DNA of 64,000 bases, from NCBI GenBank assembly GCA_963711835.1, contig CAVQFQ010000025.1, forward strand, positions 49,442-113,441, read 5' to 3'. The translations under genes were made by a program, and so were the position numbers. This DNA comes from an uncultured delta proteobacterium (GTDB taxonomy: Bacteria; Desulfobacterota; RBG-13-43-22). Position 1 is the stretch's first letter, and each line of letters begins with the position of its first letter. Under the pieces are notes generated by a model. The model was not told the DNA's origin. It did not search any database and worked only from the letters and a program-made list of their open reading frames with translations. Of this stretch, positions 4,615 through 30,825 are shown piece by piece.

Positions 4615-5638
4615 TTATTTAAAATAATCGTCCCGGGCCTTTTTGAGCTGCTGAATATTCTCCAGGGGGGACCGGGGGGCGATCCCGCAGCCCGGGCAAA
4701 GAAAATCCGTGCCGTTTTCGAGGGCCTGGATGGATTCCTTATAGACCTCCTCCGGTGTTCCGCTGAAGAGAGTGGTGGCCGTGGCTACATTTCCAAAGAC
4801 TTTAACTCCGCTTTTGTGGGCGATCTCCACCGCCCGCTTTAGGTCCGCTTTTTCTTCGATGCTAATCCCGACCGCTCCCGTGGCGCACATCAATTCGATA
4901 ATCGGATCGGTATCGGCACAGACGTGTAAAACCACCGGCCCCTTGATGCTGCTGATGATTTCCTTTTCCAAAGGTAAAACAAATTTTTCATAAATTTTTG
5001 GGCTGAGGAGGGCCGGACCGGAAGTGGGTTCGGCAAAGACATAGAAATCGGCCCCCAGGTCAAAGGCGAAATTGGCGGCCGCTATGGCGGCCTGTTTGGT
5101 GACTTCAAAGGTCTTCAGCAGGGCATCCGGTTTTTTAAAGACCCATTTCATGAAGAGCTCGGTCCCCACCAGGTTGGCGGCGCAGGTAAAGGCCCCCTCC
5201 GATTCGCCGAAGATAACCATCGTCTCTCCGACTCTTTCTTCGAGCAGCCTGAAATTTTCTTTATAAACCGGAAAACGACCCCGGCTTAAAAAGTCGGCCG
5301 GGAATGCCAAATTTTCAACGCCTTCGGCATAGGGGTGTTCCTTGATAAAATACTGGCGATCGATCTCCGGCTTGCCCATGCCGCACCCCATAGCCTGGCT
5401 TAAAGGAATGATATCCCAGCCCATGGCCTTGACCCATTCAAAGTGCCCATAGACATGTCCCGCCATGGCCAACTCGGTCATGGCCTTCGGATCGTCATCC
5501 GCCAGGGGCCTCTCATAGCCGCATTTCTTCATAAAATCGACTACGCCATAGGTTGTTGTACGAGCCTACCGGGGTCTTGTCGACCTCTTTCCCCTGCAGT
5601 TGGTTTAAAAACCTTTTTTTTAAACTCAATTCTTCCAT
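4615..5638 (-). CDS. MtaA/CmuA-family (URO-D fold) methyltransferase; one apparent frameshift near 5562
   Basis: AGGAGG then ATG at 5638 gives MEELSLKKRFLNQLQGKEVDKTPVG; removing one base joins it to the 4615..5532 frame. Zn-ligand motifs LHVC and PGCG present. Confidence 0.8.
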
Positions 5639-5872
5639 CTTGGGCCTCCTTATATTTAAAAAAATGAATAATTTCCTTTTTAATTAGCTTAAACTAAAAT
5701 ACCACCGTTTTCAAATGATTTAATAACTCGACTATAAATTTCCTCTTTGCTATACTTCTTGTCCATCTCATTTGCATTGGGACCTCATCTGACGGATAAT
5801 TTTCTGGTGTCCGGGTCTCACGTTATCGACATCTGACCAGACCCTCCATTTATTTGAGAAAGGTCTAAAACT

Positions 5873-6394
5873 ATGTACTTAGACTTACGGAGTGCCCTTG
5901 TCCGTGATGGCAACCGGGTCACTTTTTTTGGACTTCCCATTGCCTTGCATTGCCACCACTACAATATTAATCTCCAAAAAACAGCGGAAGACATTTTGGG
6001 AGCGGAAGGGATTGAACTCCTCTTCCGGGCCGCTGAAGAGGCCAGCCATATGGGATTTAAAGCCATTTTAGGTTGGTATGATCGGATTAAGACCACAAAA
6101 TCGAAATTGGAATTGGCCGCTTCGGTTTATCAAAACTGCGGATTAGGCGTTATCCATTTCCAACAAATAGATCCCAAGAAAGGTCGGGTAGTCAGTACCT
6201 CCAGTTATCATGTCACCGGATGGTTGGCCAAGCATGGCATTCGATCAACTCCGGGTTGCCATTTTTCCCGAGGCTGGATCGCTGGGGTTCTGGAAGTCAT
6301 TTACGATCGACCCATTGGATATTTTGCTGTGAATGAGCGGGCCTGTAAGATGATGCGAAAAGAGAAATGTATTTTCGAGGTGAAGGAGCGTTAA
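5873..6394 (+). CDS. V4R-domain protein
   Basis: GLGVI...GCHFSRGWIAGVL...ERACKMM...CIFEV pattern typical of V4R. Confidence 0.7.
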   Translation: MYLDLRSALVRDGNRVTFFGLPIALHCHHYNINLQKTAEDILGAEGIELLFRAAEEASHMGFKAILGWYDRIKTTKSKLELAASVYQNCGLGVIHFQQIDPKKGRVVSTSSYHVTGWLAKHGIRSTPGCHFSRGWIAGVLEVIYDRPIGYFAVNERACKMMRKEKCIFEVKER

Positions 6395-6994
6395 GTGGCC
6401 ATTGATGGAAATAAAATAATTCAAGCTTTCATGGAAGGAAGTCGGATTCGGGATGAAAAGGGGATTATTCCTATCTTTGGGGTATATCTTTCCCTTTTTT
6501 TTGTCCAATATTATAATCGCCTTTCCTTTGATTTTGAAAGAAGGCTGGGTGAAGAGCGACAAGCGGAGGCAGAAGCTTATCTGATTCAAGCCGCTCAAGA
6601 ATGTGGCTATGCCACGTTTCATGGGCTACTCAATTCCTGGGAATGGGAAAACCTCGTTAAACCTATGATTGAGAAGGAAGAAGATAAGCTTCTTGGATTC
6701 ACCGCTGTGGCTTTGGCTGCCGGGTGGGGTGATTTGAGCATAAGAAGCCTCATTCCTGGGGAAAAGCTCGTTGTCTATGTAAATGAATCCTATGAGGCCA
6801 CAGGCTACCTCCAATCCCACGGTCGTGCCGGTTCAGGAAAATGTTTTATGCTTCGCGGGGTAACGGGAGCCTTTATGGATGTCCTCTACGGAGAAGACTA
6901 TCCGGACGGCTGCTTCACATTTTTAGCAGAAGAGCCTCTCTGCCGGGCCAAGGGAGATGTTCATTGTGAGTTCGAAGTCCATAAAAAATCCTAA
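6395..6994 (+). CDS. V4R-domain protein (second)
   Basis: GWGDL...SYEA...CFMLRG...EPLCRAKGDVHCEFEV; GTG start directly after the upstream stop. Confidence 0.72.
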   Translation: MAIDGNKIIQAFMEGSRIRDEKGIIPIFGVYLSLFFVQYYNRLSFDFERRLGEERQAEAEAYLIQAAQECGYATFHGLLNSWEWENLVKPMIEKEEDKLLGFTAVALAAGWGDLSIRSLIPGEKLVVYVNESYEATGYLQSHGRAGSGKCFMLRGVTGAFMDVLYGEDYPDGCFTFLAEEPLCRAKGDVHCEFEVHKKS

Positions 6995-9232
6995 AGGTTT
7001 TCAAAGGGAAGCCAACCTCGTTACCGGGCCAACTTGTTGGGAATACTTGGCCTGTTCCAAGGTGTTCTGTCCGGCATACGATAAAAGAAACCTGACCTGC
7101 TGGACCGTTTCTAAAACTCATTGCAGCGAAGAGGTCAGTGATGATTTCTTTAAAAAAATAGCGGCCTGTGTGGTTTGCCCATACTTCAAAAAAATAGGTG
7201 ACCAGGACCCAAGCGGATGGAATTATTTTCTGGCTGAGCAGATCCGCCAATATAATTTTAAGGCCTTGGGGCAGATCTATCAAAAGGAAGAAAGCTTTAT
7301 CGAAATCTTGGATCGCATCCCCGATGGGCTTTTTACCATCGATCAGGAATGGAGGATCACTTACTTTAATCCGGCGGCCGAAAAAATCACCGGTTTTTCA
7401 ACCCACGATGCGGTAGGGATGTATTGCAAGGACGTTTTAAAAAACACGATTTGTGAGACCGATTGTGCTCTGAAACGAGCTGTGGCTAACGGTACCTACA
7501 CCTATCATCAGGAGCAGATGATAACCAATATTGAAGGGAAAAAGATTCCGATTATCTGTTCAACCTCCGTCTTTTTAGATAACGAAAGGCGAATTACCGG
7601 GGGCATTGAGATATTCAAAGATATTACGGAACTGAGAAATCTCCAGGAGGAAATTTTAAGAAGGGAAAGAAAGTACCGGCGCATCTTTGAAAGCAGTAAT
7701 GACATGATTTATATTTCTAATCAGGGAGGCGCAATTCTGAATGTAAACCAGGCTGGGGTGGATATGCTCGGATACCGCAGCAAAGAGGAGTTGATGGGCA
7801 TCAGATCGGTAAGACAACTGTACCGAAGTACCCGAGATCGTGATCTTTTCATGGAACGGATCAATCGAGACGGGTACGTCAAAGATTTCGAAGTAGATTT
7901 GAAGCGGAAAGACAAATCGCTTGTCCATGTGCTCATTTCCAGCCGGCGCCATATAAATCCCGAAACAGAAGAAATCGAGTTCGAGGGAATTATTAAAGAT
8001 ATTACTCAGCGCAAAAAGGCAGAGCAAGCCCTCAAACAACGAAACCGGGATCTCTCCATTCTCAATACGATTGCTTTGGGTTTGAATATTACCATGGATT
8101 TGGATCAACTCTTGAGAATGACTCTAAAAAATATTATTAAGATGCTGCGAATACAAAGCGGGGCCCTGTTTCTGATTGACCGGGAAAAGAAAAAGGTCTT
8201 GCTCCAAGGGGGATATGGATTACCCGTCCAGGAACCCGGGCGCCTGGGCGAAGTTTTCTTTAAGGATATCCCCTTGATGAATTTCCTTTTAGACGAGGAT
8301 GGGAAGCTTCCACCAAAACCAAAGTTTCCTCCCTTTCAGGTAACTTACCCGGGAGAAGGTGGGAGGCCGGTTCCTTGGTTGTTTAGTTTTCTTATAACCT
8401 CACGGGGCAAATGCCTGGGATTCTTTGGCCTGGATCTTCCGCTCACAAAAATGCTAAGCCCCCATGAAGTGCATTTGCTCTCTTCTTTGGGCAATTTTTT
8501 AGGTGGAGCCATAGAAAATACTCAACTCGTTGAAACCATAAGGCGCCATCGACAAGAGCTGCGAAAACTAACTGAGAAGCTATTCCAGAGCCAGGAAGAG
8601 GAACGACGTCGTATCGCTCGGGAATTGCATGACGAAGCTGGCCAGGCCATGACGGGGATTAAATTGGGGTTGGATAGGCTGGAAGGGGCTGTGCCGGATG
8701 ATAACCAAATTCTTAAAGAAGAAATAGATCAAATCAGGAAGATGGTGACCCGCACTTCTTCGGAAATCAGACAGCTCTCCTATCGACTCCATCCTACGCT
8801 ACTGAGCGACCTTGGCCTGGAGCCGGCTCTGGACCTCTATTTAAAGAGCGTGGCCAACCAGTCGAAAATGAACATCGACTTTCGCATGGTGGGATTTGAC
8901 CACCGCCTGGACGCTGATATTGAAACCGTGCTCTATCGCTTCAGCCAAGAGGCCTTGACCAACACGCTAAAACATTCCGGAGCGGAAAACTTTCACCTCT
9001 CAATCATCAAGGGGTCACCAAAAATTATTTTTTTAGCTGAGGATGATGGGATTGGATTCGATGGCCGGATCATAGGAAACAACAAGAGGAGTTTGGGGTT
9101 ACTGGGTATGCGGGAGCGGGCTTCCCTTTTAGGAGGAACCTTCCAAATCCGAAGCCAACCCATAACCAGGGTACCCGAATTCGTATTGAAATTCCCTTAA
9201 ACGAGGTGCAGAGCCATGGCACAAACGATTAA
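6957..9232 (+). CDS. sensor histidine kinase (Cys-rich N-terminus, 2 PAS, GAF-like, HisKA_3/HATPase); frameshift near 9162; start uncertain
   Basis: IARELHDEAGQ H-box, QEALTN, EDDGIGF, GLLGMRERA; shifted frame restores QGTRIRIEIP as in the paralog at 21042. Confidence 0.85.
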
Positions 9233-9880
9233 AATTCTACTGGTTGACGACCATACCATTGTCAGGCAGGGACTGGCTCGCTTATTGGAGGATCAACCTG
9301 GTTTTAAAGTGGTGGGGGAAGCGGTGAATGGTAGGATTGCCGTTGAAAAGGCACAATCACTAAAACCGGATGTCATTATAATGGATATCGCCATGCCTTC
9401 TTTAAACGGCATTGAAGCCGCCAAAAGAATACGCAAGCTCCTCCCCAATACCAAGATACTGATTCTATCCATGTATTCTCAAGAAAATTATATTCACGAA
9501 CTTTTAGAAGCCGGGATATCGGGATATTTATTAAAAGACACCTCCAGCGGTCCTGATATTGTTCATGCTATTGAAGCGGCCATGAAGGGTGAAACCTCCC
9601 TAAGCCCGTCCGTGTCCAAATTGTTGGTGGATCGGTATCTCTCACTCCGAAAAAGTTCTCCCAAGGAAGAACGCTTCAATCAGCTATCCGATCGGGAAAG
9701 GGAGGTCTTACAGCTCATTGCCGAGGGCATTCGACCAAAAAGATTGCCGATCTACTCTGTATCAGCATTAGCACGATTAAAACCCATCGGGCCAAGGTTA
9801 TGGAAAAACTGGAATTGCGCACCACACCCCAATTAATATATTTTGCTATTCAGCTCGGTTTGGTTGAGCAGGAACTTTAG
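9216..9880 (+). CDS. NarL/LuxR-family response regulator; frameshift near 9728
   Basis: LVDDH...MDIAMP receiver domain; shifted frame gives STKKIADLLCISISTIKTHRAKVMEKL HTH ending at TAG 9878-9880. Confidence 0.85.
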
Positions 9881-9926
9881 CCCCCCTCTTTCCTCTCCAT
9901 CCTTCTCATCTCCAGAGATTATAAGG

Positions 9927-10008
9927 ATCATCCTTTTGTTGCCTAAGGATCATCTTTTTGTTGATTAAAAAACATCCTTTTGTTGATAAAAAACATCCCC
10001 AAGACGAT
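9927..10008 (+). promoter_or_regulatory. four tandem imperfect palindromic sites (A[T/A]CATC-N5-G[T/A][T/C]GAT consensus) at 22/22/21-bp spacing; candidate response-regulator operators
   Basis: Sites start at 9927, 9949, 9971 and 9992, upstream of the first methyl-transfer operon. Confidence 0.6.
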
Positions 10009-10133
10009 TTACCTTACGATCAAGTTTGTTGTATATTTGTTAAAATTCAAAAAGGTGAACTGGCTGATTTCTTTTTTGTTGGGTCGATACAAACCATACC
10101 GATTAACCCTAATCCGAGGTCAGACAGAGAATT

Positions 10134-10479
10134 ATGAGCTTCCTGCTCAGGCCACAGCACTCCCTAGGCAATCCTTTATACACAAAGTTGACCCTCCCGT
10201 GATGAGGCGCTGGAAGCGCTTCGAACGATTCTAAAAGAAGAAGAGATAAGCATACCTATTGATTTGATTTTAATCCGGGATGAAGCTGAAGCTACAGCCA
10301 AGCATTTCCAGGGTTCTCCGACCATCCAGATCAATGGATTGGATTTGGAGCCTGAGGCCCGAGAGCACCCAAAGATCGGTATGGGTTGACGATTTTATAT
10401 AGCGGAGGATGGACGATTCTCCAAGACCCCACCGGATTTCTTGGTCCGGGAGCAATTGAGGATATTGCTCAATGAATAA
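10134..10479 (+). CDS. putative thioredoxin-like selenoprotein with two Sec (DUF2703-like); needs a 1-nt frameshift near 10165-10170 to connect to ATG 10134
   Basis: Frame from 10171 reads ILYTQS-U-PSRDEALEAL...HFQGSPTIQINGLDLEP...GMG-U-RFY...; TGA at 10189 and 10387 sit where this family has Cys; hairpins follow both. Confidence 0.65.
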
Positions 10480-10517
10480 AAAGAACTAATTGATATTAAT
10501 TCGAAAGGAGTGACTTC

Positions 10518-11564
10518 ATGTCGGTCTTCAACTCAAGAGAAAGAGTCCTTCGACTTTTTCGTCGTGAACCGTTGGATACCATGCCCGTGTTTAGTGGGAT
10601 GGGTATGGTTACTATCCAGGCTATTCGTAAGATGGGGATCCCTTTTCCCCAGGTCCATAAATCGGCGGAATACATGGCCCGGGCGGCCTTGACTTCGGCT
10701 GAAATCTTCGGTTTTGATGCCGTGGTTATCCCTTATGATATGTGTACCGTTCCCGAAGCCCTGGGCCGTGGGGTGAGCCTTTATGAGGACTCTGAGGATA
10801 TCCTTTACCCTACCGTTCCAACCAAATGGGAAAGCCTGGAGGCAGTGGAAATTCCCCCGAATTATCTTTCTTTGGGTCGGATGCCTTTGGTGGACAAGGC
10901 ATTCGGTCTTTTAAAGGCCCAGTCGGATCAGGGGTTGGCCATCGGGGGATGGGTCTTGGGACCTTTTACCATGGCCGGACAACTCCTGGAACTGGATTTT
11001 CTCTTAAAAGGAATTAGAAAGGATAAAGAACGTATCGAAGCTTTTCTGGCCACCATGACTGATCTGGTGATTGAAGTAGCACGACATTATCAGGCCCTGG
11101 GACTTGATTATATCACGATCAGGGAAATGGGTTCAGGGACGGATCTCCTTTCCCCGCGTATGTGGACGACCATCATTGAACCCAACCTAAAAAGGCTTTT
11201 TGCCGCTATCCAATCACCCAAGATTCTCCATATCTGCGGTTCCACCGACCTGATTATCGAAATGATGAATAACTGCGGGGCCGATGCCCTTAGTGTGGAT
11301 CAGAAAAACAATTTAGCCTTATCTCGAAAAAAGTTGGGGAATGAAGTGCTGCTTTTAGGTAATTTCGATCCCTACCGTACTCTAGTGCATATGGACCCTT
11401 CTCAGGTGGAGTCGATTATTAAGAAGTGTATCGATGACGGTGCGGATGCGGTCTGGCCAGGATGTGACTTGTGGCCTGATGTGAATGAAGAAAATCTGAA
11501 AGTTGCTTTAAATACCATAAAGACTTATGGTCGCAAGCCGAGTCCCGCAGTCGGAAGGCTCTAA
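10518..11564 (+). CDS. MtaA/CmuA-family (URO-D fold) methyltransferase
   Basis: GPFTMA, ILHICG and WPGCDL motifs; RBS AAGGAG. Confidence 0.88.
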   Translation: MSVFNSRERVLRLFRREPLDTMPVFSGMGMVTIQAIRKMGIPFPQVHKSAEYMARAALTSAEIFGFDAVVIPYDMCTVPEALGRGVSLYEDSEDILYPTVPTKWESLEAVEIPPNYLSLGRMPLVDKAFGLLKAQSDQGLAIGGWVLGPFTMAGQLLELDFLLKGIRKDKERIEAFLATMTDLVIEVARHYQALGLDYITIREMGSGTDLLSPRMWTTIIEPNLKRLFAAIQSPKILHICGSTDLIIEMMNNCGADALSVDQKNNLALSRKKLGNEVLLLGNFDPYRTLVHMDPSQVESIIKKCIDDGADAVWPGCDLWPDVNEENLKVALNTIKTYGRKPSPAVGRL

Positions 11565-11589
11565 TAAATTTTATGAAAGGAGAAAAAAC

Positions 11590-12252
11590 ATGGCAAGCAA
11601 GGACGAATTGCACAAGGTCTTAAAGGAGGGAGTAATTAACTTTCAGGAAGAGGAAGTCAGGGAGGGGGCTCAAAAGATTCTGGCGGAAGGGTACGATCCT
11701 CTGGAAGCGGTCATGGATGGGCTCGCTGCCGGGATGCTGGTCGTGGGAGATCTTTATGAACGCAACGAGTATTTCGTTCCCGAGGTGCTCATGTGCGCCG
11801 ATGCCCTGTATGCCGGGTTGGACATTTTAAGACCCCATATCCCGAAAAAGGAAGGCAATATCAAGGGGCAGGTCGTTATCGGGACCGTTCAGGGGGATGT
11901 CCATGATATCGGTAAGAACCTAATTAAGATGATGTTTGATGTAAGCGGTTTCCAGGTTCATGATCTGGGTCGGGATGTCCCCGTGGAGAAGTTCGTGGCG
12001 GAACAGATGCGCACCGATTCCGAAATCGTCGCCCTGTCGGCGATGATGAGTACAACCATGCTGGGCATGAAAAAAGTAATCCAGATGATCAAGGAAAAAA
12101 ATCCCAACGTAGCCATTATGCTGGGTGGGGCACCGGTTTCTCAGGATGTAACCAAGTTGTTCGGTGCGGATGGCTATGCCGAATCGGCAGGTAATGCCGT
12201 TGAAGAGGCCATAAAAATGATCGGCCGTCTCCGGGAACTTAAGAAGGCGTAA
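11590..12252 (+). CDS. methyltransferase corrinoid protein (MtaC/MtbC-like)
   Basis: YFVPEVLMCA cap domain; GDVHDIGKN base-off/His-on motif; LGGAP; ATG after AAGGAG. Confidence 0.92.
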   Translation: MASKDELHKVLKEGVINFQEEEVREGAQKILAEGYDPLEAVMDGLAAGMLVVGDLYERNEYFVPEVLMCADALYAGLDILRPHIPKKEGNIKGQVVIGTVQGDVHDIGKNLIKMMFDVSGFQVHDLGRDVPVEKFVAEQMRTDSEIVALSAMMSTTMLGMKKVIQMIKEKNPNVAIMLGGAPVSQDVTKLFGADGYAESAGNAVEEAIKMIGRLRELKKA

Positions 12253-12393
12253 AAAGGGCCTCCTGTAATTATCTCCTTTTTCATTCAGCCGAAGGCCGAA
12301 ACCCAGTCGTTTGATATGGTTCGGGCTTCCGGCTTTCGCCGTAGTGACGGAATTTGTGAGTTGGGCAAGAGAATCCAATAAGGGAGGGAAAGT

Positions 12394-14451: not shown

Positions 14452-14462
14452 GCAGGGTTTAA

Positions 14463-14807
14463 ATGCAGAAAGACCAACCAGAGAAGAGAGGCGTCCAAGT
14501 ATCCGTGGAACCGGGTATTTGCGGCTTTTCTTGTACGATCAAGGCCAGGATAAAGGAACGCTGGTCAGTGCAACTGGAAATTAATTCCGGCTGTGAGCAG
14601 ATCCAGAACCTTTCTAACCTCTTGAAGGATATTACGGTCAAGGATTTGTTTTTGCCTATAACCCGGAATCCTCTTTATCTTTCGGCTGAACAAGCGGGTT
14701 GTCACCCTTCCTGCGCGGTTCCGGTAGCGGCGGTTAAAGCGACCGAAGTGGCCATGGGGACAGCCCTGCCGCAAGAGGTCAAGATTGAATTCGAGGTCAT
14801 GAAATAA
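14463..14807 (+). CDS. small Cys-containing protein, DUF6951-like
   Basis: GICGF...SGC...CHPSCAVP pattern; paralog at 30478. Confidence 0.6.
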   Translation: MQKDQPEKRGVQVSVEPGICGFSCTIKARIKERWSVQLEINSGCEQIQNLSNLLKDITVKDLFLPITRNPLYLSAEQAGCHPSCAVPVAAVKATEVAMGTALPQEVKIEFEVMK

Positions 14808-14834
14808 TTTAAATTTATTGCGGAAAGGTAAAAA

Positions 14835-16106: not shown

Positions 16107-16109
16107 TTC

Positions 16110-20206: not shown

Positions 20207-20746
20207 GTGGAAAACAAAAGGCATTCCCGTAATAAGATAAAGCCAGCCTCACTGATTTCACTGGTCCAAAGAGCCCTCGAATTGGGGGCGAATGAAGCCA
20301 AGCCTTTGAGGACGGATCAGGTGGTTTTTGATCCTCGTGCCCATCTCAAGTGCCGCTTTGGCTGCGGGCGCTGGGGCAAGTATTGGACCTGCCCACCCCA
20401 TCTTGCTCTCCCGCAGTCCACTTTTGATAAAGCCTTTGCTCGATACCAGACGGCTTTGGTTATCAAAACCAGCGATCCCAAATCCGGGCAAGAGGTGGCC
20501 CTATCTTTGGAAAAAGAGGCCATGTTACAATATGGCTGCTCCTTTGCCCTGGCCCTGGCCCTCTGTGTTCAGTGTGAAGAGTGCGCTTATCCGGAGCCCT
20601 GCCGTTACCCTCACCTGGCCAGGCCGGCCTTGGATGCCTTAGGCGTAGACGTGGGCAAGACCCTGGAGCCTCTGGGCTTTAAGGTGGAATTCGACAAGGA
20701 AGGCCTGCTCCTTCCCGTCTGGTACACCATGGTCTTGCTGGATTAA
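20207..20746 (+). CDS. DUF2284-like Cys-rich putative metal-binding protein
   Basis: KCRFGC...WTCPP and CVQCEEC...PCRYP...ARP..DALGVDV; GTG after AGGAG. Confidence 0.7.
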   Translation: MENKRHSRNKIKPASLISLVQRALELGANEAKPLRTDQVVFDPRAHLKCRFGCGRWGKYWTCPPHLALPQSTFDKAFARYQTALVIKTSDPKSGQEVALSLEKEAMLQYGCSFALALALCVQCEECAYPEPCRYPHLARPALDALGVDVGKTLEPLGFKVEFDKEGLLLPVWYTMVLLD

Positions 20747-21041
20747 GATTTAAAGCCTTGTGGTCTGAGGGGGTCGGCTTTCGGGAATGCCGTTTCAGAG
20801 AGGATGTGTATCATAAAAAATGGTTATATTCTTTCTTGGAATGCCTCCTCCCACCTGATTTTGAAGAGTTGGTAACGTCAACCCAATACCCTTTCTAATT
20901 GTACTGCCCTAATCTTTGCAGCGCATAGGGGCCATCCCACCCTTTTAAAGATGGGAAATCCCGTCAATCAAAGGAACATACGGGAATCGGCCGGATAAAA
21001 AATGTCTGGTTCCGGCGGCCGGATTTTGTTATAGTTGGCCC

Positions 21042-23036: not shown

Positions 23037-23694
23037 AGCGGTTACCGTACTGTTGGCCGACGACCATACCATTGTCCTCCAAGGCTTGGCCAAGTTATTG
23101 GAAGGGGAACCGAACATCCGGGTGGTGGGGGAAGCGCACAACGGGCGGGAGGCCGTCAATAAGGTGGAGGAATTAAAACCCGATGTGATCGTGATGGACA
23201 TCGCCATGCCCATTTTAAACGGCATTGAGGCCACCCGTCAGATCAAAAAAATCCGCCCTCAAAGCAAAGTCATCATCCTATCCATGCATTCACACGATCG
23301 TTTTATCAATGAACTTTTTTCTCTGGGGGCCTCGGGCTATCTTCTGAAGGATTCTACAGGCCAGGACATCATTCGGGCGATTCAGGCCGCCGTCAGGGGA
23401 GATACCTACTTGAGTCCTTCCATTTCCCGGCGGGTTATAGAAAACTATGTTTCCTTGAAAAAAAATAAATCCTCCCAGGAAGAACTTTACAGTCAACTTT
23501 CAAACCGGGAGCGGGAAGTGTTCCAGATGATCGCCGAGGGGCGTTCCACGAAAGAAATTGCCGATATTCTTTATGTCAGCCAAAGTACGGTAAAGTCCCA
23601 TCGCGCCAATATCCTGGAAAAACTGCAGATAGAAAACCTTAGCCAGCTCATCCAGTTTGCCATTTCCTTGAACCTAGTGGAAATCCAGCAATAG
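23026..23694 (+). CDS. NarL/LuxR-family response regulator
   Basis: LADDH, MDIAMP, LSNREREV...TVKSHRANI; ATG 23026 after GGAGG. Confidence 0.92.
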   Translation: MADKAVTVLLADDHTIVLQGLAKLLEGEPNIRVVGEAHNGREAVNKVEELKPDVIVMDIAMPILNGIEATRQIKKIRPQSKVIILSMHSHDRFINELFSLGASGYLLKDSTGQDIIRAIQAAVRGDTYLSPSISRRVIENYVSLKKNKSSQEELYSQLSNREREVFQMIAEGRSTKEIADILYVSQSTVKSHRANILEKLQIENLSQLIQFAISLNLVEIQQ

Positions 23695-23742
23695 ACTTTT
23701 CCACCCGGAATCCCTTCAAAATAGTCTCGTTGCCTCCCAAAA

Positions 23743-23759
23743 ATCATCTCTCGGACGAT
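23743..23759 (+). promoter_or_regulatory. ATCATC-N5-GACGAT site matching the 9927-10008 operator array
   Basis: Same half-sites and spacer, upstream of the second methyl-transfer operon. Confidence 0.5.
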
Positions 23760-23855
23760 AGATTTAGTTTCTTTTTTAAGGTATTGTTTCATAGAGGCTA
23801 TTACAGAAATAATTTTTTTAACGCGTTTTTATCTTTTTTATAAGGAGGCTGACTC

Positions 23856-24803
23856 GTGTTCCAGATAGAAACAGCACAAAAAGTGTGCCAGGTCGGAGGG
23901 GTGAAGTTCGGGGGGCAACCTGGAGAATATCCTACCGTGGTCTGTTCCTCCATCTTCCAAAAAGGAGACAAATTATTTCTGGGAAAAAGGCAGGAGGGCT
24001 TTGATGAAAAGCGGGCCGCGGAACTCCTTAAGACCCAGGACAAGCTCTGGCAGGAGACCGGGGTGCCGGGCATGGCCGATATCGTGGCCAATACCGGCAG
24101 TGAATTTAAGACTTATATTGATTTTGTGACCTCAGTGAGTAATATGCCCTTTTGTATCGATGCCTGGACTATGAAACCCAAACTGGAGGGGGCGGCCTAT
24201 TGTGCCGAAAAAGGCCTGCTGGACCGGATGTTTTATAACAGCCTGACGGTCTGGGAAAAGGATTTGGAGACCGAAATCAAGGAAATTGCCCAAATCGGCG
24301 TAAAACACGTGCTCCTGGTGGCCTTTGATATGGCGGATCAATTACCCAGTGGGAGAATCGCCGGCACCCAAAAACTACTTGATGCCATTGATAAGGTGGG
24401 GGCATCCTTTGAAAGCCTATTTGTTGACACTTCGGTCATGAACGGACCGGCCACGGCTTTTTGTGGCCTGGCCAACCGTCTGATTAAGGAAAAATGGGGC
24501 TTCCCCACCGGAAGCGCTCCGAGTAACGGATCGTATATGTGGAAAAAGGCCCGGGAAATGTGGGGGTTCACGGGCTGGTCGGCGGTCGATGCCGGTTTGG
24601 AGTCCCTGGCCTCCTTTCTATACCATGACATCATCTTTTCCGGTCCCATGGCCGGTGCCCCGAGAATCTTTCCGGCCGTGGCCATGGCCGATGCCTTTTT
24701 AGCCACGGCGGTTTTTGCCGAGAGCAAGCGGTTGCCCCAGGATCCGAACCATCCGCTATTTAAGCTCTTTCCGGAATTTGTGGAGCAACTCAAAAAGATT
24801 TAA
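23856..24803 (+). CDS. MtrH-like pterin:corrinoid methyltransferase
   Basis: FGGQPGEYPTV..SIF signature, FCID, YNSL, VDTSV, PTGSAPSN. Confidence 0.85.
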   Translation: MFQIETAQKVCQVGGVKFGGQPGEYPTVVCSSIFQKGDKLFLGKRQEGFDEKRAAELLKTQDKLWQETGVPGMADIVANTGSEFKTYIDFVTSVSNMPFCIDAWTMKPKLEGAAYCAEKGLLDRMFYNSLTVWEKDLETEIKEIAQIGVKHVLLVAFDMADQLPSGRIAGTQKLLDAIDKVGASFESLFVDTSVMNGPATAFCGLANRLIKEKWGFPTGSAPSNGSYMWKKAREMWGFTGWSAVDAGLESLASFLYHDIIFSGPMAGAPRIFPAVAMADAFLATAVFAESKRLPQDPNHPLFKLFPEFVEQLKKI

Positions 24804-24900
24804 TAAGCTAAGGTTCCAATTCTAAACCGGCAGCGGGTGGCCGGCCGAGGCCTTTCGCCGAGGGAATCCCCGGAAATAAAAAGAAAAAGGAGGGACAGGC

Positions 24901-25581
24901 ATGGCTTCAGAAGAAAGAACAAAAGAACTAATGAAAGCCCTTCAGGAGGCGGTAGTCAACTACGATGAGGACAAGGTCAAGGAATTGTCTCAGGCCGTTA
25001 TCGATGAAGGGGCGGATCCCTTTACGGCTACCATGGACGGTTTGGCTGAAGGGATGATTCAGGTTGGGGATCTTTATAATAAAAAGGAATACTTCGTCCC
25101 CGAGCTCCTGATGTGCGCCGATGCCCTGTATGCAGGACTGGACCTTCTGAAGCCCGCCATTGAGGCTTCCGGGAGAAAAAGCGAATCCAAGGGTTCTATC
25201 GTGCTCGGGGTGGTCGAAGGCGATGTCCACGACATCGGTAAAAACCTGATCAAGATGATGTTTGAGGTGGCCGGCTGGACCGTTTATGACTTGGGTAAAG
25301 ACGTGCCTTTGGACCGGTTCTTGGAGGAACAGTTGAGGACGGACTCGGATATCGTCGGGCTTTCGGCCTTGATGACTACCAGCATGATCAGTATGCCCGA
25401 GATCGTCAAGAAGCTGAAGGAGAAAAATCCCAAGGTTCGGGTTATGTTGGGCGGCGCCCCCATTACCCCGGAAGTGGTGGAAAAGTACGGCGCCGACGGC
25501 TACGCCCGGGATGCCGGGACGGCCGTAGACGAGGCCATTAAATTGATTAAGATGCTCCGGGAAGAAGAAAAGGCAAAGTAA
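24901..25581 (+). CDS. methyltransferase corrinoid protein
   Basis: YFVPELLMCA, GDVHDIGKN, SALMTT, LGGAP. Confidence 0.92.
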   Translation: MASEERTKELMKALQEAVVNYDEDKVKELSQAVIDEGADPFTATMDGLAEGMIQVGDLYNKKEYFVPELLMCADALYAGLDLLKPAIEASGRKSESKGSIVLGVVEGDVHDIGKNLIKMMFEVAGWTVYDLGKDVPLDRFLEEQLRTDSDIVGLSALMTTSMISMPEIVKKLKEKNPKVRVMLGGAPITPEVVEKYGADGYARDAGTAVDEAIKLIKMLREEEKAK

Positions 25582-25719: not shown

Positions 25720-28700
25720 ATGCCGAGTGGGGAAATTGAAAAAGTTTTAGTCATTTTTCAACCCTCAGGATGTCGAGGGCACATCGAACCAGGAAAGACC
25801 CTCAAACAGGCCTCCGTGGCCTTAGGCGTGGATATTGAAGGGGTCTGCGGGGAACAGGCTATTTGCGGGACCTGCAAGGTTCGGGTCGAGGAAGGGGAAT
25901 TCGAAAAATACGGTATCCGCTCCACCCGAGATCATCTTTCCGCTATGGGGCCTTCGGAGAGAAAATTCTTTAACCTGCGGCAGGTCGACGAGGGCTACCG
26001 GCTGGCCTGTCAGGCCCAGATCCTGGGCGATGTGGTTATCTTCGTCCCGGAAGAAAGCCGGATGGGTAAGCAGGTGGTCCGAAAGGCGCCTACCGCGCGG
26101 CCGATTGAAATCAAACCGGCGGTCAGAAAATATCCGGTCGAGCTGATCAAAGCCACCCTGGAAGACAATATCGGTGATTGGGAACGATTGACGGCGGCCC
26201 TGGAGGAAAAATACGGCCTGAAGCAGTTGACCTTAGACTACGAAGTGCTCATGGATTTACAGACCATCGTCCGCCAGGGGGAGTGGAAGATTACGGTTAC
26301 GGTCTGGCAGGGCCGGGAAGTGATCCGGGTCGAACCCGGAATCAAGGAAAAGGGCTATGGGCTGGCGGTCGATGTGGGCACTTCCACGGTAGCCGGTTAC
26401 TTGTGCGATATAAGCGATGGGACGGTGATCGCCACCGCCTCCATGATGAATCCCCAGATTGTCTATGGGGAAGATGTCATGTCCCGGATCAGTTACACCA
26501 TGACCAATTCGGACGGCTTGGAGATCCTGAACCAGGCTATCGTGGACGGTCTGAACGGTATCGTGGCCGAAGTAGCGGAAACCGCCGGTATCAAGCGCCA
26601 GGATATCCTGGATATGAGCATCGTAGGCAACACCTGTATGCACCATATCTATTTGAACATCGATCCCAAGTACATCGGGCGTTCTCCCTTTGCGCCGAGT
26701 TTACACCATTCGATGGATATCAAGGCCCGTGATTTCGGCTTCAAGATTCCCCAGGAAAAAGAAAGGGAAGACAAAGGGAAGTATGCCCCCTGCCGGGTGG
26801 AATGTCCGGCGGGGGTTAACGTCGATGATTTCTTATATCTCATGGCGCAGCATAAGTTTAAAGAGGCCCTGGAACTGGTCCGATTATCCTATCCCTTTTC
26901 CGGCGTCTGCGGTCGGGTCTGTACCCATCCCTGCGAAGGGATATGCGAAAGGGGTAAAGTGGATGCGCCCATTTCCATCCGGGCGGCCCATCGTTTTCTG
27001 GCTGATTATGAATTGACCCAGGGAAGGGAAAAGGCCGCTCCCGTGGAATTGAAAAAGGCCTCCCGGATCGCTATCGTAGGTTCCGGGCCGGCCGGTCTGG
27101 CCTGTGCTTATGATTTGATTCGCCGGGGACACCCTATAACCGTTTTTGAGGCCAAGGCCCAGGCCGGAGGTATGCTGCGCTACGGCATTCCGGAATACCG
27201 GCTGCCGAAAGGTATTCTGGAAGATGAAATCCATTACCTGGAAGAGTTGGGTGTGGAGATAAAGACCAATACCGCCGTGAAAAACGTGGAGGATATCTTC
27301 AACGAGGGATATCAAGCTATCTTCCTGGCGACCGGGACCTGGAAAAGCCAGAAATTGAACCTACCGGGGGAAGACAGCCCGGATGTAATCTATGCCCTCG
27401 ATTTTCTAAGAGAGGTGAATTCAGGCGAGAAAGTCGGACTGGGCGGCCGGGTGGCGGTTATCGGCGGAGGCAGTGTGGCTGTGGATGCAGCCCGGCTATC
27501 CAAGCGTCTGGGCGCCCGGGAAATTCACCTGATCTGTCTGGAATCCACCGACCTGACCTGCCGGGATCGGATGCCGGCCCAGGATCTGGAAATCGAACAA
27601 GCCCGCCAAGAAGGGATTATTATCCATCCTTCCCTGGGCGTTGGGAAAATTATCTCCGAAGAGGGCAAGGTCAAGGCGGTCGACACAGTCGGTTGTGTGT
27701 CGGTTTATGATGCCGAAGGCCGGTTTGACCCGCAGTTTTCCAAAGAGCCCGCTCCCTCGATTTCCGTAGATACCGTGATTGTGGCCGTAGGCCAGAGGGC
27801 CGAGGATAACGTTTTCTCGGAAATCAATCGGCACTCTTCGGGGATCATCCAGGTTGATGAAATTACTCTCGAAACAAACCAAAAGGGGGTTTTTGCCGGT
27901 GGTGATGTAGCTACCGGCCCCGCCAATGTGATCAAGGCCGTTCGGGCCGGAAAAGAGGCCGCTATTTCCATCGAGCTTTATCTGGCCGGGATGGATATGA
28001 AGGAAGACCGGCCTAAACCTTTAAAGGCTGTCGAAGATGTACCCAAAGAAGGGGTCAGGAAAGAAGCCCGCCAGGAGGTTCCGGAACGGCCCCTGGATCA
28101 GCGTCAGGGTTTTGATGAGGTGGAATTGGGCTTTGAGGAATCCCAGGTGGTTCAAGAATCGCTCCGCTGTCTCCACTGCGCGGTGTATGCCCAGAAGGAC
28201 GTCTCCGATGGTGAAGAGGCCCGGGGCTGGGGTATCAAAATCGCCCCCGGGGCGTACATCCATTGTCTGCCGATTGAGGCCGGTTTTGTAGGGGCCGATA
28301 ATGTGGGCGTGCTGATTGCCGAAGCACCCTATAACCAGGATAGCCTCGAGCTGGTTATCGATATCGGCACCAACGGGGAAATCATTCTGGGCAACCGGAA
28401 GAGGTTGATTTCCGCTTCCTGCGCCACGGGACCGGCCTTTGAGGGGGCCCAGTTGCGTTTCGGTATGCGGGCCGCCCCTGGGGCCATTGAAAAAATTGAA
28501 ATTGATAAAGAGACCCAGGAGGTCCGTTTCAAGGTTATTGACGAGACCCGCTGGAATACCGAAATGAAACCGGAAGAGATAAAGGCCAAGGGCATCTGCG
28601 GCTCCGGTATCATTGATGCCATCCCGCAACTCTTCTTAGCCGGTATTATTGATAAAACGGGAAAGTTCGTTAAAGAACTCCAGCATCCCCGGTTGCGGCA

Positions 28701-29172
28701 AGTGGAGGGTCAATACGAATACATTATTGCCTGGGCCCACGAGACCTCCATCGGCCAGGATGTGGTCGTCTGCCAGGATGATATCCGGGCCATCCAGTTG
28801 GGTAAGGCCGCCATGTACGCCGGCAGCAAAATCCTGATGGAGACCCTGGGGATTGAAAAGCTGGACAAGGTGATTTTAGCCGGGGCCTTCGGAAGTTACA
28901 TTGACAAGCTGTCGGCCGCGATTCTGGGGATGTTCCCGGATTGTGATCCCAAAAATGTGTATTCGGTAGGCAATGCGGCCGGGGACGGGGCTCGGATGGC
29001 TTTGCTCAATGTCGATAAACGGAGAGAGGCCGATGAGTATGCCAGAAAGGTGGAGTATATCGAGCTCACCATCTCCCCGAGATTCGAAAAGATATTTGCC
29101 CAATCGATGTGGTTTCCCCATATGAAGGACCCTTTTCCGAACTTGCAGGAGTATCTCCCGGCCAAGAAATAG
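25720..29172 (+). CDS. RACE/ASKHA corrinoid activator with an internal GltD/NfnB-like FAD/Fe-S oxidoreductase module
   Basis: RACE motifs as in 12394, split by APCRVECPAG...CGRVCTHPCEGIC...GSGPAG...GGMLRYGIP...GGGSVA...FAGGD...RCLHC. Confidence 0.88.
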   Translation: MPSGEIEKVLVIFQPSGCRGHIEPGKTLKQASVALGVDIEGVCGEQAICGTCKVRVEEGEFEKYGIRSTRDHLSAMGPSERKFFNLRQVDEGYRLACQAQILGDVVIFVPEESRMGKQVVRKAPTARPIEIKPAVRKYPVELIKATLEDNIGDWERLTAALEEKYGLKQLTLDYEVLMDLQTIVRQGEWKITVTVWQGREVIRVEPGIKEKGYGLAVDVGTSTVAGYLCDISDGTVIATASMMNPQIVYGEDVMSRISYTMTNSDGLEILNQAIVDGLNGIVAEVAETAGIKRQDILDMSIVGNTCMHHIYLNIDPKYIGRSPFAPSLHHSMDIKARDFGFKIPQEKEREDKGKYAPCRVECPAGVNVDDFLYLMAQHKFKEALELVRLSYPFSGVCGRVCTHPCEGICERGKVDAPISIRAAHRFLADYELTQGREKAAPVELKKASRIAIVGSGPAGLACAYDLIRRGHPITVFEAKAQAGGMLRYGIPEYRLPKGILEDEIHYLEELGVEIKTNTAVKNVEDIFNEGYQAIFLATGTWKSQKLNLPGEDSPDVIYALDFLREVNSGEKVGLGGRVAVIGGGSVAVDAARLSKRLGAREIHLICLESTDLTCRDRMPAQDLEIEQARQEGIIIHPSLGVGKIISEEGKVKAVDTVGCVSVYDAEGRFDPQFSKEPAPSISVDTVIVAVGQRAEDNVFSEINRHSSGIIQVDEITLETNQKGVFAGGDVATGPANVIKAVRAGKEAAISIELYLAGMDMKEDRPKPLKAVEDVPKEGVRKEARQEVPERPLDQRQGFDEVELGFEESQVVQESLRCLHCAVYAQKDVSDGEEARGWGIKIAPGAYIHCLPIEAGFVGADNVGVLIAEAPYNQDSLELVIDIGTNGEIILGNRKRLISASCATGPAFEGAQLRFGMRAAPGAIEKIEIDKETQEVRFKVIDETRWNTEMKPEEIKAKGICGSGIIDAIPQLFLAGIIDKTGKFVKELQHPRLRQVEGQYEYIIAWAHETSIGQDVVVCQDDIRAIQLGKAAMYAGSKILMETLGIEKLDKVILAGAFGSYIDKLSAAILGMFPDCDPKNVYSVGNAAGDGARMALLNVDKRREADEYARKVEYIELTISPRFEKIFAQSMWFPHMKDPFPNLQEYLPAKK

Positions 29173-29296
29173 GTGTTGGAGTGCAAAAAAGAATTGCGTG
29201 TGAAGAAAATTCAAAACGAACATCGAACATGAAATTTCGAATGACGAAGTGTTCTTTTTTTTGATAGGCATCATTCGTTAATTAAGGAGGCTAATC

Positions 29297-30334
29297 ATGA
29301 TGGGAACGGAAATGAGTTCCAGAGAAAGGGTGCTGAAATTATTCAACAAGGAAAAGGTCGATCGTCTGCCCATTTTCAGCGGTATGGGAAACATCACCGT
29401 CCAAGGACTGGAGGGGACCAACTGGCGGTTTGCGGAACTACACGTGGATGCCGGAAAAATGGCCAAAATGGCCGCCTCAACCGCCCAGCTTTTCGGCTTT
29501 GAATCTGCCGTAGTCCCTTTTGATATGGGCGTGGAAGCCGAGGCTTTAGGGGCCGGCGTTAATTTCTATGCCGGTCACACCGATATCGTTTATCCGACCA
29601 TTATCAAGAAGGCGGCCGACAAGTTTCAGGATTTGAAGATCCAGGTCCCGGATTTATCCAAAGCCGGGAGGATCCCCTTGGTGGCCGAGGCCATTCGCAT
29701 CCTGAAAGAACAGGTAGGGGATAAAATTGCTATCGGCGCCTGGGTGCTGGGTCCTTATACCTTGGCCGGCCAGTTGACCGATATCGGCGATCTGGCCAAG
29801 TCCGCGTTCAAGAAAACGGCTCAAGTCCAGGAGGTCCTCAACCAATTGGCCGATGTCATTATTGCCATTTCCAAGATTTACCGCCAGGCCGGGGCGGATT
29901 ACATCACCATTCGGGAAATGGGAGCCGGTCCGGATATCTTAAGTCCTCGGATGTTCAAGGCCCTGATTCAGTCTCCCCTGGAAAAGGTCTTTGCCGGTTT
30001 GCAATCGCCCAAGATCCTGCATATTTGCGGCAGCACGGACACGATCATTGAGCAAATGGCCCAGTGCGGGGCGGAGGCCATCAGCGTGGACCAAAAGAAT
30101 ACCCTGGCGGAAACCCGAAAGAAGATCGGCAAGGATCTGCTGCTGTTTGGGAATTTCAGCCCTTATGATACCTTGGTTCTCATGGAGGCCTCGGAAGTGG
30201 ACCCGGTCATTAAGAAGTGTCTGGAAGACGGTGCCGATGCCGTCTGGCCCGGATGTGATCTTTGGCCGGATGTTAAGAAAGAAAATATGCAGGCCATGAT
30301 GGCGGCCGCCTTGAAATACGGACAGCGCTCCTAA
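29297..30334 (+). CDS. MtaA/CmuA-family methyltransferase, paralog of 10518
   Basis: PIFSGMG, GPYTLA, ILHICG, WPGCDLWP. Confidence 0.88.
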   Translation: MMGTEMSSRERVLKLFNKEKVDRLPIFSGMGNITVQGLEGTNWRFAELHVDAGKMAKMAASTAQLFGFESAVVPFDMGVEAEALGAGVNFYAGHTDIVYPTIIKKAADKFQDLKIQVPDLSKAGRIPLVAEAIRILKEQVGDKIAIGAWVLGPYTLAGQLTDIGDLAKSAFKKTAQVQEVLNQLADVIIAISKIYRQAGADYITIREMGAGPDILSPRMFKALIQSPLEKVFAGLQSPKILHICGSTDTIIEQMAQCGAEAISVDQKNTLAETRKKIGKDLLLFGNFSPYDTLVLMEASEVDPVIKKCLEDGADAVWPGCDLWPDVKKENMQAMMAAALKYGQRS

Positions 30335-30477
30335 GGGGAAACATCGGACCCATTTCGTATTAAAGCAGGACCCGGGCTCTTGGCCCGGGAAGGGGATGAA
30401 AAGGCCAACCACCTTGACCGTTAGAGGTAAATTCGCGGAACAGGTTTTATAAGTACCTATAGGGGAGCAACAGGCCT

Positions 30478-30825
30478 ATGACAAGAGTCCGGGTCAAATC
30501 CGGCGGCTGCGGCTTTGAGGCTCACATACACGTTCAAAAAACGGAGAGAAGAAAAGTATCGGTCACGATAAGCAGTAACTGCCCCCAGGTAAGCTGCCTG
30601 GCCAAGGAATTGCCGGACCTGACCATGATGGAGGTGCTCAAGAGCCCCATCGATAAAAACCCGGTCTATGAAAAAGCCGGGCAATGCGGATTACATCCCG
30701 GTTGCCCGGTGCCCTGCGGGGTCTTAAAAGCCGCTGAAGTTGAGCTTGAACTGGCCCTGAAAAAGGAGGCCGCCATTGAATTCCAGGAGGTAGGCCTCAA
30801 AGATCAAAAGGCAAACAAAGGTTAG
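30478..30825 (+). CDS. small Cys-containing protein, DUF6951-like
   Basis: GCGF...SNC...HPGCPVP; paralog of 14463. Confidence 0.6.
   Translation: MTRVRVKSGGCGFEAHIHVQKTERRKVSVTISSNCPQVSCLAKELPDLTMMEVLKSPIDKNPVYEKAGQCGLHPGCPVPCGVLKAAEVELELALKKEAAIEFQEVGLKDQKANKG

Follow-up and report, generated by a model that had tools for sequence, protein, structure and literature searches.

A probable Mlp-type corrinoid methyltransferase cluster with predicted selenoproteins in an uncultured delta proteobacterium

Gene content of the locus

We analyzed a stretch of 64,000 nucleotides (the window) from an uncultured delta proteobacterium of the Desulfobacterota (contig CAVQFQ010000025.1, positions 49,442 to 113,441). 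Between positions 4615 and 30825 of the window lies an island of corrinoid methyltransferase genes accompanied by genes that contain in-frame TGA codons. TGA was taken both as a stop and as selenocysteine (Sec, U), and the window proteins were scanned against Pfam and NCBIfam. The four MtaA-type methyltransferases, two corrinoid proteins, two RACE activators, MtrH, CobW and YedF that a first-pass annotation of this DNA had listed were all found. The same annotation had counted four TGA-interrupted genes with six TGA codons, and none of these four genes is whole in the open reading frame list made with translation table 11. The island is one long array, almost wholly on the plus strand; the genes described below lie on that strand unless stated otherwise.

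The central part is a tight run that begins with a DF-family gene and continues with the methyltransferase MtaA_b, the corrinoid protein CoP1, the activator RACo1, a DUF6951 protein, TsoX-TrxR, CobW, a C-GCAxxG-C-C protein, HMA1, MtaA_c and HMA2, with intergenic gaps of 4-142 nt. The last six of these genes form a unit whose order is conserved. TsoX-TrxR (14835-16106, TGA at 14886) is a fusion of TsoX with a thioredoxin-disulfide reductase (NF045809, 94.4 bits, cut-off 52; TIGR01292, 359.5 bits, cut-off 343.45), and the dedicated fusion of a Sec-containing thioredoxin-like domain with a thioredoxin reductase that had been proposed earlier is therefore present. It is followed by a CobW/COG0523-type GTPase (16110-17057; PF02492, 151 bits, and PF07683) and by a C-GCAxxG-C-C protein of the DVU_1555 family (17082-17549; NF045669, 161.5 bits, cut-off 103). 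The HMA-like protein HMA1 (17600-17818, TGA at 17654) has a GTG start. The Mlp-type methyltransferase MtaA_c (17843-18892) was assigned by Pfam and NCBIfam matches, a tree and an alignment. HMA2 (18909-19139, TGA at 18954 and 18963) is preceded by a GGAGG ribosome-binding site.

The selenium-metabolism protein YedF, which combines TusA and DsrE-like parts (19475-20083; TIGR03527, 218.5 bits, cut-off 110), and a predicted metal-binding DUF2284 protein (20162-20746; PF10050, 100.6 bits) start 336 nt past HMA2. They are followed by the second kinase and regulator pair, MtrH, the second corrinoid protein CoP2, RACo2, MtaA_d and a second DUF6951 protein. MtrH (23856-24803) is a methyl-corrinoid:pterin methyltransferase of the MtrH family (NF002142, 290.5 bits, cut-off 287; PF02007).

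In-frame TGA codons

The genome encodes the Sec machinery, and finding it had been one of the checks proposed for this locus: selA (638.9 bits), selB (384.7 bits), selD (388.7 bits) and tRNA-Sec (75.1 bits, anticodon TCA) were all above cut-off. We compared the window with five orthologous contigs. One of them (L037) belongs to a Desulfocapsa metagenome-assembled genome obtained in a scan of species genomes (MtaA 79% identical), and four (L041-L044) are metagenome contigs (81-99%). The TGA of TsoX was kept in both contigs that reach the site (L037 and L043), the TGA of HMA1 in four of four (L037, L041, L043 and L044) and both TGA of HMA2 in four of four (L037, L041, L042 and L043). None of the orthologous contigs reaching these sites has another codon in place of any of the four TGA of the TsoX/HMA core, which is more than chance would give. 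In the orthologues of the TsoX and HMA genes the coding sequence was conserved on both sides of the TGA, and a GGAGG-type ribosome-binding site and an ATG lay upstream. The Sec region of HMA2 differed among the contigs (LTUTTU, MTUTTU, MQUSTU and MMUTTU); as the residues between and around the two Sec vary, the contigs represent independent lineages.

We also observed a hairpin with a UGGAW loop 21-33 nt after five of the six TGA and one with an AUGGACG loop after the sixth, the second DF site, and no such hairpin after the two stop TGA examined. For each hairpin, conservation extended over five sequences and a single pair covaried. They were counted as supportive only, because they overlap a conserved Ala-Leu-Glu/Asp coding motif. 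Together with the Sec machinery and the conservation of TGA in orthologues of the TsoX, HMA and DF genes, they bear out the earlier assignment of all six TGA as selenocysteine codons, which is very likely correct. Their supposed equivalence to Cys positions held for HMA2 against CopA/ATP7 domains and for DF against Cys-form relatives, and for HMA1 by alignment to HMA2 only. Neither the database relatives nor a profile search over 77 loci yielded an orthologue of HMA1 or HMA2 in the Cys form.

An artefactual origin of these codons, as normal stops, errors of sequencing or pseudogene lesions, is very improbable. Such an artefact would fit the lack of a start codon in the DF gene, the frameshift in one regulator, the truncation of one MtaA and the draft state of the genome (89% complete, 6.4% contamination). 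However, five further contigs, each from an independent assembly, have the same TGA, with conserved flanking protein and with a ribosome-binding site and ATG upstream, and the two TGA of DF recur in four genes from three related genomes of the same family. The genetic code is not reassigned either, as neighbouring genes end with TGA. The artefact is thus already contradicted for the TsoX and HMA genes and is possible only for the DF copy of the window.

Other TGA codons were considered as Sec and rejected: those at 5834/5855 and 25617/25677 lie upstream of evident ATG starts and have no family support, and those at 16104, 17055 and 17061 are ordinary stops between genes. Elsewhere in the genome, selD itself (contig C6:87193-88110, L010) carries one in-frame TGA, and the selenophosphate synthetase is thus itself a selenoprotein.

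In databases we found only five relatives of HMA2. They are 55 residues long, and all are called from a Met three residues past the second TGA. As standard gene calling removes or shortens such genes, clusters of the Sec-HMA type are under-counted.

The HMA proteins

The two small proteins differ from each other (24% identity). HMA2 passes the gathering threshold of PF00403 (29.6 bits, cut-off 24.8), and its UxxU aligns with the CxxC metal site of CopA/ATP7 domains. HMA1 misses this threshold (17.7 bits, E 0.005). It has a single Sec in ANTGNUIPIIK and a conserved C-terminal GKDC; in a MAFFT alignment the U falls on the second CxxC position, and the first metal ligand position is lost. Against the UxxU metal-binding selenoprotein model NF041115 (cut-off 95 bits) HMA1 scored 37.0 and HMA2 35.8 bits, and neither protein reached any NCBIfam cut-off. 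The suggested comparison with NCBIfam selenoprotein models therefore came out divided: TsoX and DF were above cut-off, whereas HMA1 and HMA2 were far below NF041115.

With the proteins of NF041115 and the HMA domains of MerP, CopZ and CopA, HMA2 shares the HMA fold, with two Sec at the CxxC metal site. In contrast to these, HMA1 has one Sec and a conserved C-terminal Cys, and both genes flank a methyltransferase, not a transporter or a reductase. HMA1 lies 25 nt and HMA2 17 nt from MtaA_c, an arrangement kept in every orthologous contig that reaches the two genes.

The TsoX-TrxR fusion

The Sec motif of the fusion is HSGDSNUKPC in the window and HSGDPNU in L037 and L043, and it matches the curated TsoX motif HSGNPxU. 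We observed TsoX fused to TrxR only in these three. In all nine other TsoX genomes among 400 sampled from the phylum, TsoX stands alone (frames of 86-147 residues). The AhpF model aligns to residues 45-398 of the fusion with 245.7 bits, against a cut-off of 502.9. Like AhpF and other fusions of a thioredoxin fold with TrxR, the protein has an N-terminal redox domain of the thioredoxin fold and a low-molecular-weight TrxR with CxxC (CAVC). Unlike AhpF, it scores below the AhpF cut-off, its N-terminal motif is UxxC with Sec, and no peroxiredoxin lies nearby.

Part of the literature on Tso neighbourhoods, reached through a review (PMC13188914) and the names of NCBIfam models, gives their selenoproteins as TsoA/B/C, TsoX, TsoY, TsoR and a HUIPC thioredoxin-like protein. 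The likeness to the present locus is that the N-terminal domain of the reductase is a member of TsoX and that L043 has TsoR-, TsoA- and HUIPC-like genes round the core. The differences are that TsoX is here fused to TrxR and that the TsoA locus of the genome is on another contig, by selB and without MtaA genes.

In L043 (1-2800, 6149-6556) these genes are a TsoR-like regulator of the ArsR/SmtB type (82 bits) and a TsoA-like gene with one TGA, together with a DsrE-like gene with VUPPC. The relative of the HUIPC thioredoxin-like selenoprotein is in the Cys form and occurs also in L042 (1928-2248). The TsoA gene of the host, with one TGA, is on contig C13:71976-81715 (L157) and is followed by two larger TGA-containing frames and a DsrC/TusE-like gene; selB lies about 7 kb further on, and no MtaA or corrinoid genes were found there.

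MtaA paralogues and related loci

His240, Cys242 and Cys322 (MtaA_c numbering) are invariant in an alignment of the four MtaA paralogues. The HxC...C motif reported earlier is thus kept in all of them, although MtaA_a is truncated and only three are full length. Among 15 relatives, His240 and Cys242 were invariant and Cys322 was present in at least 90%. We take these residues to be the zinc ligands of MtaA, which fits the His-Cys-Cys description given for Mlp proteins. None of the paralogues passes the MtaA equivalog NF040654 (cut-off 400 bits; MtaA_a 268.9, MtaA_b 219.9, MtaA_c 131.2 and MtaA_d 252.4 bits). MtaA_b and MtaA_d are 49% identical. The best solved relative of MtaA_c is Methanosarcina MtaA, 4AY7 (81.8 bits); MtaA_d (166 bits vs 4AY7) is the paralogue closest to archaeal MtaA. 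The window genes share with it the UroD fold, the H-x-C...C zinc motif and methyl transfer between corrinoid and thiol, but no paralogue reaches the equivalog cut-off, and the host is bacterial and gives no hint of using coenzyme M. In fold, zinc motif and corrinoid/thiol methyl transfer, two methyltransferases for methylthiols, MtsA and MtpA, are presumably near as well.

We constructed a tree of 106 MtaA-type sequences, from which the partial MtaA of L044 was left out. The window MtaA_c and those of four close contigs formed one clade of five rows (SH-aLRT 100). This HMA-flanked clade nests in a clade of 44 rows (SH-aLRT 99) made of corrinoid-adjacent Mlp genes. MtaA_b and MtaA_d paired together, outside both this clade and the clade formed by the second Mlp of related clusters.

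When the island proteins were mapped on 75 related loci, the five loci with MtaA_c of at least 79% identity kept the order HMA1-MtaA_c-HMA2, with TsoX-TrxR, CobW and the C-GCAxxG-C-C protein where the contig reaches. About 44 loci at 40-49% identity were clusters of the form CoP-Mlp-(CobW)-Mlp-RACo without HMA genes, and small HMA genes occurred in the five close loci only (profile search over 77 loci). In L043 a counterpart of CoP1, 70% identical, lies directly upstream of TsoX-TrxR, and in L037 MtrH comes directly after HMA2. Conserved synteny, which had been named as a check, was thus observed: the Sec genes occur with MtaA in five other contigs, and with CoP in L043. CobW stands beside Mlp genes in 11 of the 75 loci, seven of them without an HMA gene. 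As it occurs in HMA-less clusters, CobW goes with the Mlp enzyme and not with the selenoproteins.

In 400 genomes of the host's own phylum we did not observe any MtaA_c orthologue above 46% identity, and none of 13 genomes of the same family had one at E <= 1e-40. The four best matches within the phylum had no HMA gene in their flanks. The lack of orthologues in the family, together with the low G+C of the island (45-49% over approximately 5-21 kb, 54-56% in the flanks), suggests that the cluster was acquired by transfer.

Comparison with described systems

The nearest system in print is the type 1 mlp cluster (Kountz & Balskus, bioRxiv 2023, PMC10418091), of which the passages of the preprint concerned with it give the following picture. 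Such clusters contain several MtaA-like His-Cys-Cys proteins, a corrinoid protein and a RACE activator, and are defined by at least Mlp2 and Mlp3. Sec machinery is also encoded by 87% of the species that have them. ClMlp2 methylates selenide in vitro with a Km of about 80 uM, and this assay, the only one in print, ran in the methylating direction. The authors propose (de)methylation of methyl-selenide or methyl-sulfur compounds, building on the sdm genes of Methanococcus voltae (PMC10418091). According to these secondary sources, the sdmABC genes serve the use of dimethylselenide (Niess & Klein 2004, via PMC10418091 and PMC11097638). The portion of the work on M. maripaludis covered here describes high expression of a Sdm-like locus in cells starved of selenium and names dimethyl diselenide as a good selenium source.

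Like type 1 mlp clusters, the window has several MtaA-like His-Cys-Cys genes, a corrinoid protein, a RACE activator, a host with the Sec trait and selenium-linked genes nearby, and its MtaA_c, which belongs to the corrinoid-adjacent clade, nests among the Mlp genes of similar clusters. It differs in having MtrH and no Mlp of the second clade, in the two Sec-HMA genes that flank its Mlp, and in the additional Sec-containing TsoX-TrxR and C-GCAxxG-C-C protein. The main text of Kountz and Balskus (PMC10418091) nowhere uses the terms CobW, YedF, "heavy" or MtrH. A 2026 review (PMC13188914) lists TsoX, DF, UxxU metal-binding, MbdU and ArsM/DUF2284 proteins as selenoprotein families, and the section of this review that deals with operons does not mention such a cluster. 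Full-text literature searches returned no description of this gene combination; the paper of Haft & Tolstoy 2025 on Tso neighbourhoods lay outside their coverage.

From its gene content the locus is likely a variant of a system already in print, of the mlp/Sdm kind. Within the literature covered, the conserved unit of Sec-containing TsoX-TrxR, CobW, C-GCAxxG-C-C protein, HMA1 (xxxU), Mlp and HMA2 (UxxU) seems to be new. The first-pass annotation had not recognised the combination as a characterised pathway. This is too broad, since MtaA_c belongs with the Mlp enzymes, for which a methyl-selenium or methyl-sulfur role has been proposed and a link to Sec is in print, but it seems to hold for the six-gene unit, of which the literature covered gives no description.

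Proposed mechanism and alternatives

We tentatively favour, at slightly less than an even chance, a corrinoid cluster of the mlp/Sdm type in which methyl is exchanged between a folate-type one-carbon carrier and compounds of methylated selenium (or sulfur), with the three selenoproteins acting as an NADPH-driven selenol relay round one methyltransferase. In such a scheme the RACo activators would reduce the corrinoid proteins to Co(I), MtaA_c would use its soft His-Cys-Cys zinc site to exchange methyl between a substrate of the methyl-selenol or methyl-thiol type and CoP1, and MtrH would exchange methyl between corrinoid and tetrahydrofolate. The link to the folate one-carbon pool, already suggested by the first-pass annotation, is upheld by the MtrH-family gene of the window and by the MtrH gene directly after HMA2 in the Desulfocapsa contig. 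HMA2 (UxxU) and HMA1 (xxxU, with its C-terminal Cys) would bind or reduce selenium species, for which dimethyl diselenide, methylselenol and selenide are candidates, and would thereby become oxidised to a diselenide or a selenenyl-sulfide. Their re-reduction would fall to the Sec-containing TsoX-TrxR, which would draw on NAD(P)H in the way that AhpF serves AhpC. Diselenides have a low potential, to which a reductase built on Sec is well suited. YedF could pass selenide onward in the host of the window and in L041, and CobW may metallate the zinc enzyme. The direction, whether demethylation for salvage or catabolism or a detoxifying methylation, is not readable from the sequence.

Several observations weigh against this selenol relay. 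The cluster contains no substrate-specific gene. The best NCBIfam matches of HMA2 are MerTP (4e-12) and MerP (1e-7), which point to metals over selenium. Type 1 mlp clusters, as described in the main text of the preprint (PMC10418091), have no folate methyltransferase, whereas the window has MtrH. The second Mlp of related clusters forms a separate clade of 27 rows in our tree, with no member in the window. Only in the window and in L041, its closest relative, do YedF and DUF2284 lie next to the core. The hairpins after the TGA codons are short and their sequence is confounded with the coding motif mentioned above. Finally, the left part of the island (4615-10480) is decayed or mis-assembled, with the truncated MtaA_a, a regulator frameshift near 9722 and a DF gene without a start.

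The matches of HMA2 to mercury proteins bring up an organometal(loid) function, in which a soft metal or metalloid (Hg or As, and possibly Cd or Cu) is bound by the Sec-HMA proteins, while MtaA_c transfers methyl between it and the corrinoid. The reaction could be a methylation, or else the demethylation of methylmercury or methylarsenicals by anaerobes, to which no genes have so far been assigned, and MtrH would provide the link to folate. HMA2 is a true HMA domain with UxxU on the CxxC metal site, MerTP and MerP are its best curated matches, DUF2284 is fused to arsenite methyltransferase in curated selenoproteins, and the TsoR-like ArsR/SmtB-type regulator heads the cluster in L043. According to the review (PMC13188914), many Sec-containing transport or binding proteins are tied to resistance to Hg or As. 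However, Pfam and NCBIfam scans detected no merA, merB, merT, arsM or ars genes within the window, and no HgcA was above cut-off in the 89%-complete genome (67.7 bits vs 275). Cycling between Co(I) and methyl-Co(III) transfers a methyl cation, not the carbanion that mercury chemistry needs. For the closest published enzymes the substrate is selenide or sulfide, as far as the main text of the preprint goes (PMC10418091). On balance we consider an organometal(loid) function unlikely. Alternatively, the Sec-HMA proteins could present bound methyl-selenium or methyl-metal(loid), for example CH3Hg+ or a methylselenenyl-selenide, to the corrinoid enzyme and be reset by the Sec reductase, which is a speculative and improbable possibility.

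Two further explanations were considered. The first-pass annotation had taken protein selenols as methyl or methyl-metal(loid) carriers in place of coenzyme M; in such a model the selenols of HMA1 or HMA2 would be the methyl acceptor or donor of MtaA_c, with Se-methyl-selenocysteine on a carrier protein. The HMA genes do flank MtaA_c at constant positions in every orthologous contig reaching them, enzymes of the MtaA type are established to methylate a zinc-bound thiolate, and this bacterium would not be expected to make coenzyme M. Yet the corrinoid protein is already a methyl carrier, and we know of no precedent for a second protein carrier. Moreover, shuttling methyl groups alone would consume no reducing power, but the HMA genes are conserved together with an NAD(P)H reductase dedicated to them. 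For this reason we read HMA1 and HMA2 as redox-cycling selenol proteins and give the carrier model little credence. The same genes might instead serve maintenance, with HMA1, HMA2 and CobW supplying MtaA_c and the corrinoid protein with zinc (or cobalt) as metallochaperones, and with TsoX-TrxR keeping zinc-site Cys or the chaperones reduced; the selenols would then never meet the methyl substrate. In favour of this, metallochaperones classically have the HMA fold, the His-Cys-Cys zinc site is required by each of the four MtaA paralogues, and CobW occurs beside Mlp genes also in HMA-less loci. Against this, approximately 70 related clusters have neither HMA nor TsoX-TrxR, so that metallation in general does not depend on these genes. 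HMA1 retains only one of its two positions for metal ligands, and two costly Sec and a dedicated Sec reductase would be hard to justify for the delivery of zinc. Such a maintenance role seems to us rather doubtful.

Corrinoid Mlp clusters occur widely among anaerobes, where they are suspected to take part in the cycling of methylated selenium and sulfur. To one Mlp lineage the present cluster adds a conserved, apparently obligately Sec-containing trio of two HMA-fold proteins and TsoX-TrxR, and it ties the HMA-flanked lineage to a folate methyltransferase of the MtrH type. It thereby gives testable proteins for the route by which a B12 enzyme is supplied with reactive selenols, diselenides or soft metals, for the purpose of TsoX-type selenoproteins, and for whether sulfate reducers of sediments turn methyl-selenium, methyl-sulfur and methyl-metal compounds into folate-bound one-carbon units. 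If the HMA proteins present substrate to the enzyme, this would be a selenol-based substrate relay of a kind that has not been described. It would then be a candidate either for the "oxidative" demethylation of methylmercury in anaerobes, to which no genes have so far been assigned, or for the catabolism of dimethyl diselenide into the folate pool. A literature search on oxidative demethylation of methylmercury and corrinoid methyltransferases returned no description of this combination.

Remaining genes and setting of the island

The array is bounded by an ATP:corrinoid adenosyltransferase gene (3952-4488) and by an operon of methylmalonyl-CoA mutase, B12-subunit and MeaB genes (31272-34364). 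These B12-type genes, together with the low G+C, suggest that the island is inserted into a B12-related acyl-CoA operon. A promoter and terminator scan of 9800-25000 gave fewer sites than shuffled sequence. In assembled contigs of four sequencing runs, relatives at 90-99% identity were present in sediment samples. One contig of an RNA library spans 14909-15140 with one difference, which is too little for a claim of expression.

The first corrinoid module consists of MtaA_b (10518-11564), a full-length methyltransferase assigned by Pfam and NCBIfam matches, tree and alignment, of CoP1 (11527-12252; B12-binding_2 and B12-binding in the Pfam and NCBIfam scans), and of the RACo/RACE-type reductive activator RACo1 (12394-14451; PF14574, 311 bits, with PF17651, PF17650 and Fer2). 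The second one has CoP2 (24901-25581; Pfam and NCBIfam), RACo2 (25720-29172; Pfam and NCBIfam) and MtaA_d (29297-30334; NF004889, 272.4 bits, cut-off 244). Each module ends with one of the two DUF6951 proteins, a (14463-14807; PF22263, 97.7 bits) after RACo1 and b (30478-30825; PF22263, 110.7 bits) after MtaA_d. Both are Cys-rich, with approximately 115 residues and 7-8 Cys. A DUF6951 search of the ESM Atlas returned DUF6951 clusters alone.

RACo2 carries an inserted GltD-like [4Fe-4S]/FAD/NAD(P)H module, in which Fer4_20 and the FAD/NAD(P)H domain Pyr_redox_2 sit between the RACo middle and ASKHA domains. Judged by its domains, the insert would supply RACo2 with its own electron input from NAD(P)H. 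The same domain set was common to all 120 database clusters listed (57-97% identity, mostly about 1150 residues). These are named only DUF4445 or ASKHA and come from metagenome-assembled genomes of Deltaproteobacteria, Chloroflexi and Peptococcaceae.

Two kinase and regulator pairs were assigned by Pfam. The first sensor kinase (6957-9200, Pfam and translation) has the order PAS-PAS-GAF-HisKA_3 and a Cys-rich N-terminus, with about 10 Cys per 70 residues before the PAS domains (6957-7250). This stretch, which is lacking in the second kinase, may be a metal or redox sensing site. Its response regulator occupies 9216-9877 (open reading frame 9216-9836), and the LuxR-type helix-turn-helix continues in another frame past approximately 9722, through a frameshift or an assembly error. 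The second pair consists of a PAS-GAF-HisKA_3 kinase (21042-23036) and an intact LuxR-type response regulator (23026-23694). Matches to PF02830 were weak for a tandem pair of V4R-like proteins (5873-6394 and 6395-6994), which scored 24.6 and 16.6 bits where the cut-off is 31. The DUF2284 protein gave partial matches to the MbdU and ArsM/DUF2284 selenoprotein models of NCBIfam.

Left edge and the DF gene

MtaA_a (4615-5532, minus strand), a methyltransferase of the URO-D/MtaA family (Pfam URO-D, 168 bits, from profile position 39, and alignment), lacks approximately 45 N-terminal residues, and a stop codon lies 12 codons upstream of its Met. The DF-family selenoprotein gene (10168-10479, TGA at 10189 and 10387; NF049942, 93.3 bits, cut-off 70) has TAG at 10165, where its relatives start with Met; we did not observe a ribosome-binding site or a canonical start, and this copy may be defective. 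Both of its Sec positions align with Cys in the Cys-form relatives L119-L121 and L140.

The DF gene was considered as a member of the conserved unit and rejected, since no MtaA or corrinoid gene lay beside DF in 30 other loci (1.5-kb flanks). In two genomes of the same family (G360 and G312; L138 and L139) a Cys-form DF-family gene adjoins a gene like those for low-molecular-weight phosphatases and ArsC. This neighbourhood hints that the DF family may be tied to arsenic or redox handling and not to methyl transfer.

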